A stretch of 64,000 nucleotides of DNA from Dehalococcoidia bacterium (GTDB taxonomy: Bacteria > Chloroflexota > Dehalococcoidia > GIF9 > UBA5629), in the NCBI GenBank assembly GCA_050011565.1, contig JBEKIW010000001.1, forward strand, positions 64,207-128,206, given 5' to 3'. The notes under the pieces were generated by a model. That model was not told the DNA's origin. It searched no databases and saw only the letters and a list, made by a program, of their open reading frames with translations. This document shows, one piece after another, positions 1,652 through 55,302 of the stretch (position 1 is the stretch's first letter; each line of letters opens with the position of its first letter). The translations under genes and the position numbers were made by a program.

Positions 1652-4255
1652 CTATTTGCCGCAGCAGTGCTTGTATTTTTTGCCTGAGCCGCAGGGGCAG
1701 GGTTCGTTGCGGCCGACTTTTTTACCGGCGGGAACGGCGACTTTTTGAGGCTGCCTTTGGGCCGGAGCTTCCTTCTTTTGGATGGTGACCGTGAATATAT
1801 TGTGGACGACATCATGTTGTATGCCGGCGATGAGGCTCTCAAAAAAGGCGTGGCCTTCTTTTTTATAGACGACTATGGGTTCGATCTGCCGCATAGCATA
1901 TAGGCTAGCTTGCTGGCGCAGATGGTCCATTTCAGTTAGATGGTCTTTCCATAAGCTGTCGATGGAGCGCAGCATAACCAACCTCTCCACAATGCGCATG
2001 GTATCCGAGCCTACTTCTGCCTCTCGCTGCTCGTATAGCTGTCCAGCGTATTCGATAAGCTTTTCAGCGATTTCATTGGGTCTCATCTGTGAGAGCGATT
2101 TGGGATTTATATCCGGTGGTACAGTAAAGATGGTGGATAGCTCTTCGATTAAGCCGGTAAAGTCTGATTCCATAGCGTCATGGCTGCAACTGGCGGCTAC
2201 CAGTTTTTCGATTTCCGCACACACCATGGATAAGATATTTGACTTGAGGTCAGCGCCTTCCAGGATTTTCCTTCGCTCGGCGTAGATTACCTCGCGGTGC
2301 TTGTTGACCACGTCGTCAAAATCAACGAGGTGCTTGCGAATGTCGAAATGGTAGCCTTCTACCTTAACCTGGGCGTTCTCTATGGCTTTGCTGACCATAG
2401 AATGCTCGATGGGCGTGTTCTCGTCGAAGCCAGCCCAGTCCATGAAGCCTTTAACGCGGTCGCCGCCGAAGCGACGAACGACGTCGTCTTCCAGTGAAAC
2501 GTAGAAGCGGGAACTGCCGGGGTCGCCCTGCCTTCCGGAGCGGCCGCGTAGCTGGTTATCGATACGCCTGGCTTCGTGGCGCTCGGTGGCGATGACATGC
2601 AAACCGCCAAGCTCGATTACTTTATCGTGCTCTTTCTGCCATTCTGTCGCGTCGCGCTCGGCAGGAATACCACCGAGTATGATATCGACACCGCGCCCGG
2701 CCATGTTGGTGGCAACGGTAACGGCACCTACGCGGCCGGCCTGGGCTATAATTCCGGCTTCTTTCTCATGTTGTTTGGCATTGAGTATCTGGTGGGGTAC
2801 GCCTCTTCTTTTAAGCAGGTCGCTCAGAAGCTCGGATTTTTCTATAGAGACGGTGCCTATGAGTACCGGCGTACCCTGCTGGTGCAGATTTTCAATCCCC
2901 TTGGCAACAGCTTTGAATTTGGTTTCTTCGTCCTTGTAAATCTGGTCCGGGTTATCCATGCGAATCATCGGTTTATTGGTGGGTACAACGACCACTTCAA
3001 GCTTGTAAATTTTGTGAAATTCTTCGGCTTCGGTGGCGGCGGTGCCGGTCATACCCGCCAGTTTCTTATATAGACGAAAATAGTTCTGAAAGGTGATGGT
3101 AGCCAGGGTTATGCTCTCCCGCTGGATTTTGACCCTTTCCTTGGCTTCGATGGCCTGGTGCAGCCCTTCTGAGTATCTCCTGCCGAACATGAGCCGCCCG
3201 GTGAACTCGTCGACGATGATGACCTGTCCGTCTTTGACCATGTAGTCGCGGTCTTTCCTGAACAGCACGTAGGCTTTCAGTGCATTTTCGAGGTATTGAG
3301 TTAAGCTGTAGTTAGCCGGGTCATAGAGGCTGGGAGCTTTAAGCAAGCCATCATGACGCAGCCATTTTTCCATTTTGGTCATGCCAGAGTCGGTGAGATA
3401 GGTCTGGCGTTCTTTTTCTTCAACGGTGTAGTCCTCATCTTTTTTGAGCTGAGGAACCAGGCGGGCGAAGGTGTAGTATTTTTGAGCGGCTTCTTCGCCA
3501 GTGCCGCTGATAATAAGCGGAGTGCGGGCTTCATCGATGAGTATGTTATCCACCTCGTCGACGATGGCGTAATTTAGCGTGCGCTGGACGCATTGAGACA
3601 GGTCTATAGCCATGTTATCTCTGAGGTAGTCGAAACCAAACTCATTATTAGTGCCGTAGGTTATATCAGCCGCATAGGCTTGACGGCGGGTGACGGGACG
3701 GAAATGGGGCCACCGGGTGTCTTTTTCACTCGTGTAATCAGGGTCATAAATGAGGGCGGGTAGTTGGTCGGTGGGGCCCTGTGTCGGGTAGATACTGGCG
3801 ACCGTTAAGCCAAGAGCATGATATATAGGGCCCATCCAGTAGGCGTCTCGCCGTGCCAGGTAATCGTTAACGGTAACCAGATGGCAGCCCTCGCCCGTAA
3901 GTGCATTCAAGTATAGAGGTAAGGTAGCGACCAGGGTTTTACCCTCGCCGGTCTTCATCTCGGCAATTTTGCCCTGGTGAAGAACCATGCCGCCCATAAG
4001 CTGCATATCGAAGTGGCGCTCACCTATAGTACGCCTGGAAGCTTCTCTGGCGGCAGCGAAGGCTTCGGGCAGTATGTCATCAAGCGTCTCGTTGTTTTTT
4101 AGTCGGCCTTTAAGCTCATCGGTCTTGGCACGAAGTTCAGCATCACTGAGCTTCTGAAAGTCTGGCTCGAGCGAATTTATCTGGTCGATAATGGGCTCAA
4201 GGCGTCTCAGTTCTTTTTCGTTGGAGTCGGTAAGGCTACCTAGCCACTTAAGCAT
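1652..4255 (-). CDS. secA: preprotein translocase subunit SecA
   Basis: 867 aa. DEAD-like motor motifs, preprotein cross-linking domain, C-terminal zinc-binding [14 protein letters not shown]. Confidence 0.97.
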
Positions 4256-47340: not shown

Positions 47341-47416
47341 GGGGCTGTAGCTCAATCGGGAGAGCGTTTGACTGGCAGTCAAAAGGTAGTGGGTTCGAAT
47401 CCCATCAGCTCCACCA
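47341..47416 (+). tRNA. tRNA-Ala (anticodon GGC), CCA encoded, G3:U70 identity pair
   Basis: Manual cloverleaf: acceptor GGGGCTG/CAGCTCC, D arm GCTC-AATCGGGA-GAGC, anticodon stem TTTGA/TCAAA with loop CTGGCAG, T arm GTGGG-TTCGAAT-CCCAT. Confidence 0.85.
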
Positions 47417-48399
47417 ATAACCCTTCTGAAGCTAACATCAATTCAAATCACCTTTCGACTAGCCAAGATTCTTACACGCAATTAGATATCCCATTACACC
47501 GTTTGATTGAAGGATTTCTGTTATCCTGTAAGGTAGAAAACAAATCTCCAGCAACTATATCCTTCTATAAAAATATCCTGGATAAGTTCCAATGGTTCTT
47601 AACCAAATTCGGGATTAATACTATCGACGCCACAACGATAAGAAGCTTTCTCGGATACCTTAAGGATACAGCCAGTAGATGGGATAGTAACAACACACGT
47701 GCAAATAGGCCGGTATCGCCAACAACGGTTAAGAGCTATTACATTGGTCTATCTGCATTATTTACCTGGGCTATGGAAGAAGAGTTGATACAGGTTAATC
47801 CGATGGCGAATGTAAAGAAACCTAAGCTACCTAATAAAATAGTTAAAGGTTTAGAATCTGAAATCATAATAACATTGCTAAACGCATTTAGTGGTCGAAG
47901 CTTTAATGATCTGCGTAATAAGGCTATGCTTTTAATGTTTCTGGATACTGGCTTAAGGTTATCTGAACTTGCAGGTCTGACTTTATCTGATATCAATATT
48001 GAGAAAGGCATCATCAAAATCATTGGTAAAGGCAATAAAGAAAGATACGCTAGAATAGGAGTCAAGACACAGAAAGCATTATGGAATTATTTAGCTCATA
48101 GACCAGTAGAAAAGGAGTATGTATGGTTGGGAAAAGGCTATTGTAAAATGACAGTAGATGGCATTGCTCTGGTTATTCGAAACTTGGGTAAGAGATTAGG
48201 GATTAGATTATCACCGCATAGGTTGAGACATAGTTTTGCTATTAGCTTCTTAAGAAATGGAGCTAATCCATTCGAGTTACAGATAGCGTTAGGGCATACC
48301 ACATTGGAAATGACCAGGAGATACACTCAAGCATTAGGATTTGACGATGTGTTTAAGAGACATGTGTTGGCTAGTCCGGTGGATAGATTGATGCATTAG
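47368..48399 (+). CDS. tyrosine recombinase / phage-type integrase (intact copy). True start is downstream of the tRNA and uncertain
   Basis: Core-binding and catalytic domains (HRLRHSFAISFLRNGANPFELQIALGHTTLEMTRRYTQ). Track ORF start lies inside the tRNA, so the start is probably non-ATG near 47490. Confidence 0.85.
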   Translation: MTGSQKVVGSNPISSTNNPSEANINSNHLSTSQDSYTQLDIPLHRLIEGFLLSCKVENKSPATISFYKNILDKFQWFLTKFGINTIDATTIRSFLGYLKDTASRWDSNNTRANRPVSPTTVKSYYIGLSALFTWAMEEELIQVNPMANVKKPKLPNKIVKGLESEIIITLLNAFSGRSFNDLRNKAMLLMFLDTGLRLSELAGLTLSDINIEKGIIKIIGKGNKERYARIGVKTQKALWNYLAHRPVEKEYVWLGKGYCKMTVDGIALVIRNLGKRLGIRLSPHRLRHSFAISFLRNGANPFELQIALGHTTLEMTRRYTQALGFDDVFKRHVLASPVDRLMH

Positions 48400-48547
48400 G
48401 GTACGAGGCGGTGGAGAGTAATAGGAAGTGTGGGCTGGTGGATATACTAAAATGAATTTTGTTTAATGTCTAAAGATGGCTTTCGCTGGGGGACCTTGAA
48501 CCTCATATTAACAGACTATGCGGCAATCGATGCCCTGGAATTAAGTT

Positions 48548-48703
48548 ACCTCGCCTGAAAGTGCCCTGCGCAATGTCTTATTTCCACATTTTGGACAAGG
48601 GGCTTCTTTCACTAGTTTCCCCTTAGGAACAGCAACTTTGCCTTTAAAATCACAGTTCCCGCAAACGACTGCTTCTTGATAAGTTTCATCGCTCACTTCT
48701 CTA
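48548..48703 (-). CDS. small zinc-ribbon protein (~51 aa, CGNC...CPKC)
   Basis: Manual translation (GTG)SDETYQEAVVCGNCDFKGKVAVPKGKLVKEAPCPKCGNKTLRRALSGEVT, preceded by aggagatag. Below track cutoff. Confidence 0.35.
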
Positions 48704-48893
48704 TCTCCTTGCCTTGGTCATAAATATTATATCATACTGATAATATCATTCCAGTGTCGATCGCTTTGTTAGCCCGAATGTATTACTCTAGATGAGTGCC
48801 AATTCAAAACCCAGATTTTTACCACCCGTATTGCACAATAGAAACGTTCTAGATCTTCATGACTTCTTGGCTATCCCCAGGCCTCCGATTCAG

Positions 48894-49364
48894 CTATCTA
48901 TTATTTGAGGTTCCCTTAAGGAATTTTCTGAATATGATGAAGGGACTTGCGAAAACAATAGTGTATATAATCGCTGGAATCCACCAATATCCATTAGCTG
49001 CAAAACAACTTAAGATTATTCCTGTAATAAATAGCAAAAGTCCGACTATAAAAACTATACAGGCAATGATTTTATTGCCTTCTTCAAACCACAAGAAACC
49101 TTCGAATATAAAAATAAGTGAAAAACTTGATATTTGTAATGCTGGCGTCTGTTTAATTTCTGATTTCGTGGCAAGGAATATCAAAGCAACCGCAATAATA
49201 ATGGTTCCATACATTAGAACAACTCTACTAAACAGTCTTCTCGTATTCCACCATTTGCGGGATTGGAATAAAAAAATAATACCAATACCTATTATGGGTA
49301 GTTTAGGAGCAATAAGTGTTAGCCCGTTTATAAATAGTGTTAGCCCGTTTATCAACTCTGCCAT
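48894..49364 (-). CDS. AT-rich multi-TM membrane protein of unknown function (island cargo)
   Basis: 156 aa, four hydrophobic segments. Preferred over the overlapping plus-strand ORF 48859..49404. Confidence 0.45.
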   Translation of the reverse strand: MAELINGLTLFINGLTLIAPKLPIIGIGIIFLFQSRKWWNTRRLFSRVVLMYGTIIIAVALIFLATKSEIKQTPALQISSFSLIFIFEGFLWFEEGNKIIACIVFIVGLLLFITGIILSCFAANGYWWIPAIIYTIVFASPFIIFRKFLKGTSNNR

Positions 49365-49493
49365 TTCTGTTACCTCTATATTTGAGGCTATCCCAAATTG
49401 TTAAGTATGTCCCGTTTATTTCATTTTGAATGTATTTGTCTATAGTTAACCTTGGTTAAGTAATTACATATATATAGTTCAGGTCAGGATGAC

Positions 49494-49610
49494 CAGCGAT
49501 TACTTGGACATACAACATTGGAAATGACTAGGAGATATACACAAGCATTAGGTTTTGATGACGTGTTTAAGAGGCATGTGGTAGCGAGTCCCGTGGATAG
49601 GTTGTTGTAG
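49494..49610 (+). pseudogene. integrase 3'-terminal remnant (last ~38 codons)
   Basis: ...LGHTTLEMTRRYTQALGFDDVFKRHVVASPVDRLL* is near-identical to the C-terminus of the intact integrase. Confidence 0.7.
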
Positions 49611-49793
49611 GACTGGTTTTCGGGGGCAGGTCACCTACTTCTTGTCTCCTTTGCTCTTCCCCTTTTGCGCGTCGGCATACTTATTTTTATGCTCGTTCTT
49701 GGGATGCTTTTTCTTATTACGCTTACTCATCGTCTTACTCCTCTATCCAGAAAAATACGATAGGTCACTCATTCCGTCATTTATTATATCACT

Positions 49794-50210
49794 ATGGCTG
49801 ATATTGACATTAAAAGAGGAATCATTAAGACAGTAGGTAAAGGCAATAAAGAAAGATACGCTAGAATAGGCGTAAAGACACAGAAAGCCTTATGGAATTA
49901 TCTAGCACATAGACCAGTAGAAAAGGAGTATGTATGGTTGGGAAAAGGCTATGGTAAAATGACCAAGGATGGCATAGCTCTAATGGTACGGAATCTCGGT
50001 AAGAGATTGGGTATGAAGTTATCACCACACAAATTGAGACATAGCTTTGCTATTAGCTTCTTAAGAAACGGAGCTAATCCGTTTGAGTTACAGATAGCAT
50101 TAGGGCATACTACACTGGAAATGACCAGGAGATATACTCAGGCATTAGGGTTTGATGATGTGTTTAAAAGACATATAATAGCATCACCGGTGGATAGACT
50201 GGTTAAATAG
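49794..50210 (+). pseudogene. 5'-truncated integrase (catalytic C-terminal half only)
   Basis: 138 aa aligning to residues ~205-343 of the intact integrase; N-terminal core-binding domain absent. Confidence 0.75.
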
Positions 50211-50327
50211 CTTTGATAGTCCCTAGTGTAGAATGCTCTAGGGACTATCGACTCACACATTTGTTTTTAGGCTACAGATTAAGTTAAAACGTGTGGTTAA
50301 AAAAGCCTTAAGTTGAAATTCTTGTTG

Positions 50328-50513
50328 TTAGACGGTCTTATCTTCAATTGCGGCTGAAGGTGCATCCTTCTTGACGGATTCTATCCCGTTTTTTGCATTC
50401 TCCTTGGTCGTGTATCCTTCACCCGAATTCGCAATCATTTGTCCATTGGATGCAATTAGTCTCCATCGAATTTCACCTTTTTTGTCTTTGAACAATTCAA
50501 ATTTCGCTGTCAT
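50328..50513 (-). CDS. DUF1508 (YegP-like) domain protein
   Basis: ELFKDKKGEIRWRL...GEGYTTKENAKNGIESVK pattern typical of YegP/DUF1508. Confidence 0.6.
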   Translation of the reverse strand: MTAKFELFKDKKGEIRWRLIASNGQMIANSGEGYTTKENAKNGIESVKKDAPSAAIEDKTV

Positions 50514-51216
50514 GACATTTACCTCCTATCTTTATTATTAAAGAGATACTAGCAGAGTCAGGTAGTGGGTCAATTTGAATCTGAAAAATTCTAACTCAAA
50601 TTGTGCGATGCTACACTGGCTCAATAAAGTAACTTCAAAGTGCCTTTATGAAATCAGTTGCGATAAAATCCAGAACGCTAATCCTAGGGCTATTAGGTTT
50701 ACCTTATTCCAAATGTTAATAGTTGCTATGATGAAACAGACTAGCCCAAGTATCAGTAGGATTGTTGTTATCATAATTTCTCCTTTTTCTGCGATTCAAT
50801 GTCAAGACTCTTCCTTAACCCACGGGTCTTCAACTATTAAGTGAATACTAGCAGAGTGAACATGTAGAAGTAATATAATCGAGGCACGATATGTTAAATA
50901 GTTATGATATTTATAGCGTCATCGGCGGATTGATTGATGAAATGACAGGACGGAGGTAATTCCAATGGGCCTATTTGTGCACCAAATGCAAGAATCTTGG
51001 TGTTAGGATACTGGTACGCTCAAATGGATGAGAAGGGAAAAGTGTTGTTTAATACACCTTATAATAAAGGGGTAATAGCGTTACGATGGAAAGGGTATAA
51101 CTAGCGGTGGCAGGAATTGGAACATCTCAGCCAGTGGGGAGATATCATAAATTGAATACACCGCTGACATACCTGCTATAATGCTAATTTAAGCGAATTT
51201 AATACGGAGGTCAGAC

Positions 51217-51563
51217 ATGGGAAGCAAAGGAAGAAAGAACGAGAAAAAGCCTAAGAAGCAAGTAAAAGCGAAGTCAGCAGCGAAGACACCGGATAAGACA
51301 GAACGAAAGAAGAGATAATAGTCCCGCTAGAAGGCAGGATTAGCGATATCGGCGATATAGAGCGTGTAAACATCAAACCAGGCTTGCGGGTTTCAATCGT
51401 AATAAAGGCAGATCAACGATCCGGAAAACTAACCGAAGGGATAGTCAAAGATATTTTGACACGCTCTCCGGTTCATCCGCATGGCATCAAGGTTCGCTTA
51501 GAAAACGGTCAAGTTGGGCGAGTCAAAGAGATAAAAGCTAAAGGTCTTTCTCCGCCGAGCTAG
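51217..51563 (+). pseudogene. lysine-rich peptide (33 aa) followed out of frame by a YwbE/DUF2196-like domain; possible frameshifted fusion
   Basis: MGSKGRKNEKKPKKQVKAKSAAKTPDKTERKKR* in one frame. RVNIKPGLRVSIVIKADQRSGKLTEGIVKDILTRSPVHPHGIKVRLENGQVGRVKEI in the +1 frame without its own start. Confidence 0.4.
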
Positions 51564-51607
51564 CTATGTGACGTGTCCATAATAAGTGTACCATTTTTCG
51601 TTGGCCC

Positions 51608-51871
51608 TCACCCCAAAAATTGAACACCACCATTCATTATTGACCTGAGTTTACCTTCTCTTGTAAGCCTCTTAATTCTATGCTCCATTTTAGAGGCGAG
51701 CGATTTATCTTCATAATCCCACTTCCTGAGTAATTTAACAGGTCTTCTTCCTCTGGTATACTTAGAACCAATCCCTAAATTGTGCTCTCTTATGCGCTTA
51801 ACAATATTATTGCTGATACCTGTATAAAGAGTTCCGTCACTGCACTCGACTATATAAACGTACCAGGCCAT
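51608..51871 (-). CDS. GIY-YIG nuclease-domain protein (UPF0213-like)
   Basis: YVYIVECSDGTLYTGISNNIVKRIREHN. Confidence 0.8.
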   Translation of the reverse strand: MAWYVYIVECSDGTLYTGISNNIVKRIREHNLGIGSKYTRGRRPVKLLRKWDYEDKSLASKMEHRIKRLTREGKLRSIMNGGVQFLG

Positions 51872-51918
51872 TCTATTTTCCTTCAGCAGCTCTTACCTGT
51901 AATTATAACGCCTTCAGG

Positions 51919-51958
51919 TTGTGGCCGTGGCTAGTCCGGTGGATAGGTTGATACGTTA
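51919..51958 (+). pseudogene. integrase 3' remnant (last ~12 codons) followed by the conserved post-integrase sequence
   Basis: VAVASPVDRLIR*. Downstream gatgcggtggaggc...ggtggctgggttgagg resembles the sequence after the intact integrase stop (gaggcggtggagag...ggctggtgg). Confidence 0.5.
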
Positions 51959-52113
51959 GACTATGATGCGGTGGAGGCACATAAGAGATTTAGTCCGGTG
52001 GCTGGGTTGAGGTAACAGCGGGATGGAGTAGGTTAAACATACCTATTGACTTTTTATAATCAGGCTAGTAAAATGCTGAACGTAAAAAACTAATAATTAA
52101 GAGGAGGTTATTT

Positions 52114-52479
52114 ATGGTCAAAACTTGGGGATGGATCAGTTTCATACTATTTTGCCTTGGCGTCATACTAGCTGTTGTCGGAGGTTTAGTATTTCCAGAG
52201 AGCATAGTCATTGCATTAATACTTGTCATTTTCGGCCTTATAATCGGTATTATACATGTCAGTATTGACAAAGAAGGAAAAGGACTGGTTATTCTGCTCC
52301 TGGCCACGATAGCAATATTGGCAATGACGGCTGCCTTTTCTCCGGTTACATTTTTGGGCTTCGGTAAAATGGCGGCCAGCATATTAGTAAATTTTGCCGC
52401 GTTAATGGCACCTGTGGCCCTCGTCGCTGCAATAAAGGCGCTGCTGCAACTATTCCTCGGACCACAAGTTAAAATCTAG
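52114..52479 (+). CDS. four-TM membrane protein of unknown function
   Basis: Strong RBS aagaggagg. Hydrophobic 121 aa. Confidence 0.55.
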   Translation: MVKTWGWISFILFCLGVILAVVGGLVFPESIVIALILVIFGLIIGIIHVSIDKEGKGLVILLLATIAILAMTAAFSPVTFLGFGKMAASILVNFAALMAPVALVAAIKALLQLFLGPQVKI

Positions 52480-52623
52480 CTAGTCTTAAATCAACAAGAC
52501 TAGATTGTCATTCATCTGAGACAGGTCGCTTTTACTTAAGTGTGAAAGATGGCCTGTCTCATTATTATTGACCACGTACGCGAGGTTTTCAAATAAGCGA
52601 GAACAGGCAGGTGTTGTATTTAG

Positions 52624-52677
52624 ACTGTTTGATTAGGAGTCAAAAGGTAGTGGGTTCGAATACCATCAGCTCCACCA
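52624..52677 (+). repeat. direct repeat of the tRNA-Ala 3' half (anticodon stem to CCA, degenerate loop): island junction attR-1
   Basis: gtttgattaggagtcaaaaggtagtgggttcgaataccatcagctccacca vs tRNA gtttgactggcagtcaaaaggtagtgggttcgaatcccatcagctccacca. Confidence 0.7.
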
Positions 52678-52823
52678 GACAATCCTATGAAGTTATTCCA
52701 AATTTAGATATCTTTCCATACTACCGAATTCCTACCCATATCGCGTCACTAGTTTGTATTATAATATTATATACGTTATATACGCCGCTTATTATGGTTG
52801 GTATGAAATGTTGAGGACACGCT

Positions 52824-54068
52824 GTGCCTAAGATTCCTGACCTGGTCAATGGTTTCAAGATGCTGAAGGAGGTGGACCTGAATACGGTCCGCGCGCAGGC
52901 TGAAATACCCCTGCATGTCATGGTTATCGGAGAGGCCGGGACAGGTAAGACTGCGCTGGTCGAACAGTTACTTGTCGGGCCAAGGTCGGAAGGGCCTCCG
53001 GATTTGGTCTCCATTACCATGTATCGGCCAGACCTGAATCTGCAAATTCCGGATAATACGCTGGTATTGCTGCTTCTGGATGTTAGGAAGACCGACCTTC
53101 AAAACGAGCGGGCAATCTTTGACAGGCTCATTGGCAGGAAGATAGCGACGGTCGTCTGCTACAACAAATCATATCTGGCCCGCGAAGAAAACCTTACGCT
53201 GAACAGATCAATCTGGACTGGTGCCGAGACGGCTGTTATTACCGCCACCGACCGCGATACGCTGATGCGCGAGCTTGTACCTGCCATCTTACGCGTGTGC
53301 AAAGGCCGTGAGACCCGGTTAGCCCGTCACCTGCCGATGTTACGTGCGCCGGTCGCGCAAAAGCTGATTGACGACACCTGCTTTATCAATGCTACCTATA
53401 GCCTGAGCACCGGCCTGGCGGAGATAGTGCCTATACTGGACCTGCCGCTGAATTTAGCAGATATCGTTATATTGACTAAAAACCAGGCTTTGATGGCGTA
53501 CACCATTACGCTGGCCATGGGAATGCAGGCCGAATGGCGCGATACCATGCCCAAATTAGCGGCTGTGGTTGGATCAGCCTTTCTCTGGCGGCAACTAGCC
53601 CGTTATCTGGCCGGCCTCATACCAGTCATCGGCATCGTGCCAAAGGTAGTGATCGCCTACTCGGGAACCTACGTGATTGGCGAAGCTGTTTACCAGTGGT
53701 GCGCCAACGGCGAGAAGCTCAATCCGGAGGAATTAAAAGTTCTCTATGCTGAGGCCTTGAAGCGTGGCAGTGAGGTTGCCAGGGTGCTGATCGCGAAAAG
53801 GGGTGCAGCTCAGTACCAGGCGGCCGACAAATTCAAGGAGATAGCACAGCTCATCTCTAAGAGAAGCACCACTACTCAGGAGCAGGCCTCCAGCAGGTTT
53901 CAGGCGGTTATGTCCTTCATTGCCCGAAAAAGCCAGGATACACGTGAGCAAATTTTTTCTATTGCTGATAAAGTGTTCCAACCGGGGACTGCCTGCTTGG
54001 CTTGCGGCAAGAAGTCGCCCAAAGGTGCGGGCTTCTGCGCTTTCTGCGGCAAACCCCTGAATTCCTGA
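52824..54068 (+). CDS. P-loop NTPase-like domain + DUF697 (YcjF-like) domain + C-terminal double-CxxC zinc ribbon
   Basis: VMVIGEAGTGKTALVEQLL (Walker A), NKSY (G4-like). LAAVVGSAFLWRQLARYLAGLIPVIGIVPKVVIAYSGTYVIGEAVYQW resembles DUF697. CLACGKKSPKGAGFCAFCGKPL. GTG start. Confidence 0.6.
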   Translation: MPKIPDLVNGFKMLKEVDLNTVRAQAEIPLHVMVIGEAGTGKTALVEQLLVGPRSEGPPDLVSITMYRPDLNLQIPDNTLVLLLLDVRKTDLQNERAIFDRLIGRKIATVVCYNKSYLAREENLTLNRSIWTGAETAVITATDRDTLMRELVPAILRVCKGRETRLARHLPMLRAPVAQKLIDDTCFINATYSLSTGLAEIVPILDLPLNLADIVILTKNQALMAYTITLAMGMQAEWRDTMPKLAAVVGSAFLWRQLARYLAGLIPVIGIVPKVVIAYSGTYVIGEAVYQWCANGEKLNPEELKVLYAEALKRGSEVARVLIAKRGAAQYQAADKFKEIAQLISKRSTTTQEQASSRFQAVMSFIARKSQDTREQIFSIADKVFQPGTACLACGKKSPKGAGFCAFCGKPLNS

Positions 54069-54141
54069 CGGGCGTCAGCATCAGTTGGCACAAACCGGAT
54101 TACATATGGAGAAAAGTATGACAAAAATGGTTTTGATCGAA

Positions 54142-54187
54142 ACTGGCAGTCAAAAGGTAGGGGGTTCGAATCCCATCAGCTCCACCA
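54142..54187 (+). repeat. second direct repeat of the tRNA-Ala 3' half: distal island boundary attR-2
   Basis: actggcagtcaaaaggtagggggttcgaatcccatcagctccacca; 45/46 identity to the tRNA 3' part. Confidence 0.7.
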
Positions 54188-54246: not shown

Positions 54247-55302
54247 CTATTTCGTCATATTATCAATAATAGCCCTGCCGGCGTACTTGCCTTCGTCCAA
54301 CTCCTCGAGTACCTGGCTGATTTCCGATAAGCTGGCAACTCTACCTACGTGAGTTTTTACTTTACCATCTGCGGCCAATTGAATTAATTCCCTCATTTCT
54401 TCTACTGTACCCACTGCCGACGACATTATAAGAGGGTCTCTGCCTAATAGTTCCAACGGCATTATCGATATTGGCCCTTCGCTCACGGGAGGCATTCCCA
54501 CTCCGACAAATACTCCTCCGCGCCTCATTAATTTTAATCCGAGTTCAAAGCCAGCTATCTTTGGTGAAAATGCGATGCTGGCGTACACGCCGCCGAACTT
54601 CTCCTTGACGAATTTTTCGGCTTCGCTTATATCCACGGCGTAGTCGGCACCCAGGCTCTTCACGAATTCTATTTTGTCCTGCCCTACATCGACTCCGACG
54701 ACTTTATACCCGAATGCCTTGGCTGTCTGTACTGCGTAGTGCCCGAGCCCACCCGCCGCACCGATAATAGCTACCGGCTTACCCGGTAAAACGCCGAATT
54801 TGATTAGTTTTTTGACGGCGCTGTAGGCTGTTAAGCCGCCGCATGCCAGCGGGACTTCTCTGTCGCTTACTTCCTCAGGTAGTTTTACCAATGATTTTAC
54901 CCAAACTGAAATGTACTCAGCATAGGCGCCGATAATGCCCTTAGTCTGTTTGCATAGCCTGGGCCTGCCACTGAGGCAATATTCACAAGCACCACACCAG
55001 TATCCTCCTCCTGAGCCACCGAGACCCAATATAACCCTATCGCCTTTCTGTATGAATTTCTCTGCTCCTGTACCTAACTCCTCGACTATCCCTATGCCTT
55101 CATGACCCATCGGCATCGGAATTGGTGGGAGAAACCCGGGCCAATCCCCTTTAACCAAATGTACATCCGAGTGGCAAACGCCTGCGGTGGTAATCTTGAC
55201 CAGGGCTTCTTCGTGCCCGGGGGTGGGTTTAGGTATATCTTTAATAACTAATTTACCGTCGGCTAGGAAAACTGCGCGCATATTTGTCTGCCTCCAACAC
55301 AC
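54247..55302 (-). CDS. zinc-dependent alcohol dehydrogenase (MDR family)
   Basis: GHEGIG zinc motif, GxGxxG Rossmann. Confidence 0.88.
   Translation of the reverse strand: MCWRQTNMRAVFLADGKLVIKDIPKPTPGHEEALVKITTAGVCHSDVHLVKGDWPGFLPPIPMPMGHEGIGIVEELGTGAEKFIQKGDRVILGLGGSGGGYWCGACEYCLSGRPRLCKQTKGIIGAYAEYISVWVKSLVKLPEEVSDREVPLACGGLTAYSAVKKLIKFGVLPGKPVAIIGAAGGLGHYAVQTAKAFGYKVVGVDVGQDKIEFVKSLGADYAVDISEAEKFVKEKFGGVYASIAFSPKIAGFELGLKLMRRGGVFVGVGMPPVSEGPISIMPLELLGRDPLIMSSAVGTVEEMRELIQLAADGKVKTHVGRVASLSEISQVLEELDEGKYAGRAIIDNMTK

Follow-up and report, generated by a model that had tools for sequence, protein, structure and literature searches.

A single-gene islet between repeats of a tRNA-Ala 3′ end in a Dehalococcoidia bacterium

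One gene between two copies of a tRNA end

The 64,000-nucleotide (nt) stretch of Dehalococcoidia DNA analysed here, hereafter called the window, contains a short islet in which one gene is enclosed by two direct repeats of the 3′ end of a tRNA gene. ARAGORN finds a single tRNA gene in the window, tRNA-Ala(GGC), and a repeat search retrieves the last 39 nt of this gene three times, once within the tRNA itself and twice downstream (Table 1). The second copy has 0 mismatches to the query copy and the third has 2, with a chance expectation of 0 for matches of this length. At the third copy the identity begins at about position 54141, making the repeats 39-47 nt long. The second and third copies delimit the islet, which measures 1.47 kb and has a single open reading frame (ORF) with homologs between these repeats; neither a recombinase domain nor a transfer gene was found within the islet by ORF calls and Pfam searches. 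A preliminary description of the locus, made from the sequence, had already placed this ORF alone between att-like repeats, and both the ORF and the repeat searches confirm it.

Table 1. Positions of the tRNA target, the repeats, the islet and the protein domains, numbered from the first letter of the window.
Feature	Position	Strand	Description and basis
tRNA-Ala(GGC)	47341-47416	+	integration target; ARAGORN; Rfam tRNA 69.5 bits
Repeat copy 1	47378-47416	+	inside tRNA-Ala(GGC) itself, last 39 nt
Island 1	47417-52638	.	AT-rich (GC 0.394) integrated element directly 3′ of tRNA-Ala(GGC)
Repeat copy 2	52639-52677 (feature 52610-52677)	+	left boundary of islet; ends a degenerate tRNA-like sequence
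Islet left arm	52678-52745	+	unlike chromosomal orthologous loci; weak in-register similarity to left arms of integrase islands
Leader	52746-52823	+	conserved with chromosomal orthologs; alignments A2, A5
ORF	52824-54068	+	GTG start, 414 aa, Chloroflexota-wide family
Era/Der-type Ras-like G domain	52905-53303	+	residues 28-160; alignment A1, AF2, Foldseek, family profile against PDB
Helical domain	53310-53714	+	residues 163-297; all-helical; most conserved part, most invariant residues; alignment A1
Linker	53724-53978	+	residues 301-385; variable, low-confidence helical; alignment A1, AF2
Zinc ribbon	53988-54059	+	residues 389-412; C391-x2-C394-x10-C405-x2-C408
Repeat copy 3	54141-54187 (39-nt match 54149-54187)	+	right boundary of islet; repeat search and alignments

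Within the islet, the gene is preceded by a leader that is conserved with chromosomal orthologs, indicating that the leader moved together with the gene. This leader contains a TATAAT-like hexamer (52760-52765) and a Shine-Dalgarno sequence, GAGGA (52813-52817); a sigma-70 consensus scan of the leader returned no promoter. The start codon is confirmed by homologs, in which this codon is ATG or TTG. The composition of the islet is host-like and not GC-anomalous: the ORF has a GC content of 0.54 and a GC content at third codon positions (GC3) of 0.635, with host genes at 0.50 ± 0.034 and 0.54 ± 0.058, respectively. The islet had been introduced as GC-rich, which holds relative to the AT-rich island 1 next to it and not relative to the host genes.

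Island 1 fills the space between the tRNA and the islet. It encodes an intact tyrosine integrase of 343 aa (47368-48399; Pfam Phage_integrase, 1.3e-31) and a truncated second copy comprising the C-terminal 138 aa (49794-50210; Pfam Phage_integrase, 8.1e-21). The two copies are 88% identical and no att repeat was found between them; island 1 itself is composite or decaying. It is a possible source, in trans, of recombinase for the islet. At the junction of island 1 and the islet, positions 52610-52674 form a full-length but degenerate tRNA-like sequence (Rfam tRNA 26.2 bits, against a gathering score of 29) whose 3′ end is the second repeat, so that island 1 ends on its right side in a pseudo-tRNA and not merely in the 39-nt core. 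The sequence 3′ of the third repeat is unrelated to the island arms and is taken to be native flank.

The islet protein and its family

The islet gene encodes a member of a large protein family. Word-sharing homologs of the 414-aa protein number 492, mostly from metagenome-assembled genomes of Dehalococcoidia, and an exhaustive profile search over clusters formed at 50% identity returned 1,821 clusters at E ≤ 1e-3 and 234 at E ≤ 1e-30. With one genome scanned per species, the family is distributed across the Chloroflexota (Dehalococcoidia, Dehalogenimonas, Anaerolineae, Thermoflexales and Caldilineae), where it is usually chromosomal and monocistronic. A colinear domain layout is common to the 492 homologs and the ~1,800 clusters. 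The islet protein runs from a conserved N-terminal peptide through a G domain, a helical domain and a variable linker to a zinc ribbon. Members fall into three length classes, of ~335 aa lacking the C-terminus, ~375-390 aa with a short linker and the ribbon, and ~414 aa with a long linker and the ribbon.

This distribution bears on two points raised in the preliminary description. The first, that the islet protein is a special fusion with an added ribbon, gives way to a layout that is family-wide in Chloroflexota, with the ribbon a trait of a subfamily and not specific to the islet. The second is that the ORF might be an artefact in which a sequencing error has merged two genes. We regard this, and likewise a chance ORF, as next to inconceivable: the same ORF recurs in independent assemblies, with an identical protein in 5 independent contigs, hundreds of homologs and the ~1,800 clusters have the same colinear architecture, and the ratio of nonsynonymous to synonymous substitution rates (dN/dS) is 0.15.

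The N-terminal domain is an Era/Der-type G domain, on the combined evidence of profile comparisons and structural modelling. A family profile derived from alignment A1 matched Der (2.6e-9), Era (1.6e-4) and TrmE (3.4e-4) in the PDB. In the AlphaFold2 (AF2) model, the predicted local distance difference test (pLDDT) values of the domain range from 83 to 92, and a Foldseek search of the PDB with this domain returned the Ras-like folds of Irgb6, IIGP1, MnmE, Der, YsxC and KRAS. Weak Pfam matches to GTP_EFTU, RsgA or MMR_HSR1 were obtained for 24-30 of the 39 family members scanned.

The P-loop recognized at the outset is present in the window copy (G1, GEAGTGKT), together with a Walker-B-like LLLLD86. 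The divergence of the remaining G motifs was also read correctly: in alignment A1 the G3 motif DxxG is absent family-wide, and G4 of the window copy is N114-K-S-Y117. NKSY is found in the window copy and its closest relatives and NKSD in the family consensus and most members, which makes the replacement of Asp by Tyr particular to the window's clade. At the P-loop, aligned with window residues 36-43, P0008 (GIGET), P0025, P0028, P0093 and P0120 have lost the Walker A lysine or the entire motif. The decay of the P-loop in these five members suggests that GTP binding and hydrolysis may be dispensable in part of the family, and a drift of the family towards pseudo-GTPases seems to be under way.

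The helical domain is the most constrained part of the protein, with an omega of 0.05 against chromosomal orthologs. It contains two hydrophobic segments rich in Pro and Gly, at residues 198-216 (Kyte-Doolittle 1.67) and 262-280 (1.89), which coincide with low-pLDDT loops; these features suggest possible membrane insertion. Many family members are named 'DUF697 family' in JGI annotation, and the preliminary description had identified this domain as DUF697, with a profile search as the proposed check. The DUF697 model PF05128 (gathering score 27.7 bits) gave no match at E ≤ 10 to the protein, the isolated domain or the family consensus, no match at E ≤ 1 among the top 25 families listed for the 39 family members, and no match at E ≤ 0.01 to 10 distant members. 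The positive control, E. coli YcjF, scored 188 bits with the same model. Likewise, hhalign of A1 against YcjF or a 10-sequence YcjF alignment returned a probability of 0.1-0.2%; the YcjF homologs retrieved were all more than 82% identical and from Enterobacteriaceae, so that the DUF697 profile used here is shallow.

The identification as DUF697 thus fails its own check, and weak remote signals remain. A hidden Markov model (HMM) of the C-domain of the family, built from 247 sequences, aligns to YcjF residues 191-250, within the DUF697 region, with 6-8.6 bits, a score reached by 2 of 2000 shuffles. In addition, the family member P0262 matches EcsC (PF12787) at 4.6e-4, and YcjF matches the same region of that profile at 0.027. 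These signals weakly suggest that the helical domain is DUF697/EcsC-like at a remote level, with membership unproven.

The P-loop domain had in turn been equated with E. coli YcjX, whose gene adjoins that of YcjF. The N-terminal domain was therefore considered as YcjX/DUF463 and rejected: PF04317 does not match, and hhalign gives a probability of 14% over the P-loop only (residues 18-74). An origin of the gene by fusion of YcjX (DUF463) and YcjF (DUF697) would explain the JGI naming and the C-domain alignment to YcjF. It is nonetheless very improbable, as both Pfam models and both hhalign comparisons are negative past the P-loop and the N-terminal domain is significantly Der/Era-like.

The linker that follows the helical domain is shortened or absent in other subfamilies, and its pLDDT is below 50 for residues 328-387. 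The C-terminal ribbon of the preliminary description is present, with a spacing of CxxC-x10-CxxC and not x14 between the cysteine pairs. Pfam Zn_Ribbon_1 (PF13240) is found in 27 of the 39 family members, with a best value of 5.6e-8 and a value of 0.052 for the window copy.

Scans of the protein against Pfam, NCBIfam, PADLOC and PHROGs produced matches at the level of the P-loop or the ribbon only. No conserved gene partner was found across the 144 loci surveyed, the neighbours being clade-specific (BNR/sortilin, He_PIG, MoeA, DUF2284, a CDF transporter, AhpC), and searches of phages, plasmids and viral contigs returned no relatives. The family is an uncharacterised branch of G-domain plus DUF697-like proteins: a large Chloroflexota family (~1,800 clusters at 50% identity) whose most conserved domain escapes every Pfam model.

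The same searches bear on whether the gene is an accessory stress or anti-phage defence cargo, spread through its benefit to recipients under attack, as the preliminary description had proposed. Its position in an integration hot spot beside an island would fit such a role, as would a P-loop protein with an unusual set of motifs, the P-loop-level matches in PADLOC and the link of E. coli ycjXF to the heat-shock and Psp regulons (PMC3041696). We consider this role unlikely, and the PADLOC, phage, plasmid and viral-contig searches offer it no supporting evidence. The best PADLOC match (1.4e-4) covers 31 residues (19-49) in the Walker A region and no match to a defence family extends past that region. 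Furthermore, the gene has no partner genes, and the family is widespread in Chloroflexota, usually in conserved chromosomal contexts, unlike patchy defence genes.

With low confidence, we propose that the protein works as a switch under nucleotide control. The two hydrophobic segments would let the helical domain bind the cytoplasmic membrane or dip into it, in the manner of DUF697/YcjF-type proteins, and the zinc ribbon would act as an interaction module. Nucleotide hydrolysis would probably be dispensable, since several members combine a decayed P-loop with an invariant helical domain. The visibly degenerating G domain makes the family a candidate pseudo-GTPase/membrane module.

Probable relocation of the gene and exchange of the islet

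Outside the clade of att-flanked copies, copies of the gene that are 69-81% identical are chromosomal, in the order pentapeptide protein, gene, 177-aa protein, SpoU methylase and AttH. No tRNA or repeat was found within 8 kb of these SpoU-linked copies, and the genes of the SpoU/pentapeptide locus were not found within the 64-kb window, a result that does not extend to the rest of the genome. A neighbour-joining tree groups the att-flanked copies as a single clade inside the SpoU-linked chromosomal clades. DNA homology to the chromosomal orthologs comprises only the ORF and ~80 nt of leader, and stops ~10 nt 3′ of the stop codon. The dN/dS of 0.15 given above refers to the comparison with chromosomal orthologs; between islet copies the ratio is 0.31. 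These substitution ratios show purifying selection on the gene.

The islet is found in three array configurations. In the window and in L149, the order is tRNA, island 1, repeat, islet, repeat and alcohol dehydrogenase (ADH). In L008, the tRNA is followed by a different island of 6.5 kb (DpnII/MboI and others), repeat, islet, repeat, a remnant of the left arm of an integrase island, and then NMO and acetyltransferase genes. In L155, the islet follows the tRNA with no upstream island, and its right repeat is followed by the same remnant as in L008. The boundaries of the islet are identical in L008, L155 and L156, and the L156 contig, whose protein is 89% identical at the amino acid level, begins and ends exactly at the repeats.

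Divergence changes abruptly at these boundaries. Between the window and L008, the islet gene is 96.5% identical at the nucleotide level with a synonymous divergence (dS) of 0.076, whereas 7 core genes flanking it on both sides are 82-91% identical with a dS of 0.32-0.92. Between the window and L155, blastn gives 85.4% identity up to the end of the tRNA and 96.3% from repeat to repeat. The block of high identity therefore stops at the att repeats, and the islet dS, far below that of the flanks, indicates that the cassette is far more recent than the divergence of its carrier genomes. These comparisons support, at the level of sequence divergence, a horizontal exchange of the cassette between related species after their lineages had split. 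They also lend support to the earlier suggestion that the islet mobilises as a unit (96.3-96.5% identity for the islet, 82-91% for the flanks).

We therefore favour, with a probability of about 0.6, the interpretation of the islet as an integrase-less cassette resembling a cis-mobilizable element (CIME) and carrying a relocated, lineage-typical gene under purifying selection. CIMEs are defined by the retention of attL and attR and the absence of integration and transfer genes (PMC5704250). Recombination is known to occur at tRNA-Ala in Dehalococcoides, where 3′ fragments of the gene are repeated (PMC2764846), and integrase-less tandem islands at ssrA have been proposed to be cis-mobilizable (PMC3146451). 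The islet lies among elements inserted in tandem at the tRNA-Ala(GGC) 3′ end and has both att-type repeats. A tyrosine integrase from one of the neighbouring islands would excise and integrate the islet in trans. The islet could then move alone, by recombination of repeat 2 with repeat 3, or along with its neighbour in a process of accretion and mobilization.

A second part of the family also lies next to tRNA-Ala. In a Dehalococcoidales clade with proteins of ~335 aa (L041, L047, L051-L053, L055 and L084), the homolog is a native neighbour located 0.5-1.9 kb downstream of tRNA-Ala(TGC), and islands bounded by repeats of the tRNA-Ala(TGC) 3′ end sit between the tRNA and the homolog gene. L047 has a whole duplicated tRNA; the positions concerned are 1454-1529, 3885-3960 and 7488-7535 in L047, and 1029-1104 and 6820-6875 in L055. 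This clade represents a second, independent case of the family lying at a tRNA-Ala hot spot.

The ~335-aa clade gives some ground for seeing the islet as a static remnant, in which the gene, whether native to the chromosome beside tRNA-Ala or all that survives of an old island, no longer moves and the repeats are scars of islands that entered and left around it. Such a history would agree with the islands inserted between tRNA-Ala(TGC) and its native neighbour, with the presence of the islet in all three array configurations, with its host-like composition and with the lack of an integrase inside it. It is a doubtful explanation, however, for three reasons. A tRNA-end repeat is also found downstream of the gene, and insertions of islands upstream would not create one; the low dS of the islet relative to its flanks requires a recent exchange; and the closest relatives outside the clade are at a different, SpoU-linked locus.

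Several observations weigh against the CIME-like reading and the protein model attached to it. Neither an excised circle nor an empty site nor an array lacking the islet was seen; all three configurations contain the islet, which may now be fixed. Homologous recombination anchored on the 39-47-nt repeats could account for the exchange. The arms of the islet resemble those of integrase islands weakly, the left arm having 21-22 in-register identities over 46 positions (null 13.3 ± 3, P ~0.004-0.015) and local alignment of the islet arms with the arms of island 1 being not significant, which leaves descent from a decayed integrase element putative. For the protein, the AF2 confidence of the helical domain is moderate (pLDDT 36-86), the Pfam DUF697 and YcjF hhalign comparisons are both negative, and no conserved gene partner among the 144 loci points to a function.

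A broader form of the CIME-like interpretation is more tentative. It holds that a conserved Chloroflexota gene, possibly the only copy in the genome, has been turned into an integrase-less cassette that is swapped between Dehalococcoidia species via tRNA-Ala att sites, and that the association of two clades with tRNA-Ala (GGC and TGC) results from capture by imprecise excision of islands. Capture of an att-adjacent gene in this way offers a possible route, by analogy with the ~335-aa clade, to the att-flanked form of the window's clade. If true, the islet would be a natural case in which a core gene became mobile cargo by a 'specialised transduction-like' conversion.

The repeats also affect how the islet appears in assemblies. 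Short-read assemblies break exactly at the tRNA-end repeats in L002, L003, L009, L150, L153 and L156, and because of these breaks the islet is often a stand-alone contig of ~1.5 kb with identical ends that could pass for a circular element. L009 (1,530 bp), whose two 20-nt ends are identical, was a candidate for an excised circle but was rejected as a break of the de Bruijn assembly at the repeat.

Further variable DNA lies around the array. On the 3′ side of the third repeat, the window has a zinc ADH gene (54247-55302, minus strand), and L008 (11476-13329) and L155 have the NMO and acetyltransferase genes; synteny between the window and L008/L155 returns at a DNA_alkylation gene. Directly 3′ of the third repeat, L008 11365-11410 and L155 4644-4689 match the integrase-proximal arm 3′ of the tRNA with 85% identity over 91 nt, a length that counts the repeat. 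This sequence probably belongs to a third element, now decayed, for which no right boundary was found. At the start of the window, an ORF of 339 aa on the minus strand (618-1637) has a GC content of 0.394, against the host mean of 0.50, with no Pfam match and no similarity to integrase. It may be further foreign DNA.

Comparison with known mobile cassettes and protein families

The locus is a clean example, in minimal form, of a cassette bounded by att sites and lacking an integrase, and suggests that in uncultured peat Dehalococcoidia the tRNA-Ala arrays pass ordinary conserved genes, besides accessory genes, from species to species. Its closest counterparts are the CIMEs and the tandem accretion of elements described for ICESt1-type elements of Streptococcus and for ssrA and tRNA-Ala in Dehalococcoides (PMC5704250, PMC3146451, PMC2764846). 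As in these systems, the islet is flanked by attL/attR-type repeats of the 3′ end of its target, lacks integrase and transfer genes and is in tandem with an integrase-bearing element, in an array whose content varies between strains. Unlike them, it is very small (1.47 kb) and holds a single gene, and its cargo is a relocated, lineage-typical conserved gene rather than an accessory gene such as rdhA. Moreover, its mobilisation is deduced from divergence, and its descent from a decayed integrative element is only putative.

The helical domain of the protein is comparable to those of DUF697/YcjF (PF05128, UPF0283, TIGR01620) and EcsC (PF12787), with which it shares hydrophobic Pro/Gly-rich segments. 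The resemblance to YcjF extends to a motif-level match, P-L-x-x-x-D...[KR]-N...G, at YcjF residues 191-250. However, the family lacks both the N-terminal transmembrane region of YcjF and a YcjX partner, joins the helical domain to a G domain and a zinc ribbon in one protein, and fails the Pfam model and hhalign. E. coli YcjX (DUF463) itself, a protein of 465 aa from a different family, has the Walker A P-loop in common with the islet protein and nothing beyond it.

With Era/Der(EngA)/MnmE-type TRAFAC GTPases, the family shares the Ras-like fold, the G1 motif GxxxxGK[ST], the Walker B Asp and, in its consensus, NKxD. It departs from them in the lack of DxxG, in the destruction of the P-loop in several members and, for the window copy, in the change of the G4 Asp to Tyr; it has no KH or other RNA-binding domain. 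The layout of a G domain plus a helical domain resembles that of the IRG/IIGP-type GTPases Irgb6 and IIGP1, although TM-scores are low (~0.3). Taken together, these comparisons place the locus within the range of what has been described: it is not a new kind of system, and both the type of cassette and the domain layout of its protein are of kinds already known.

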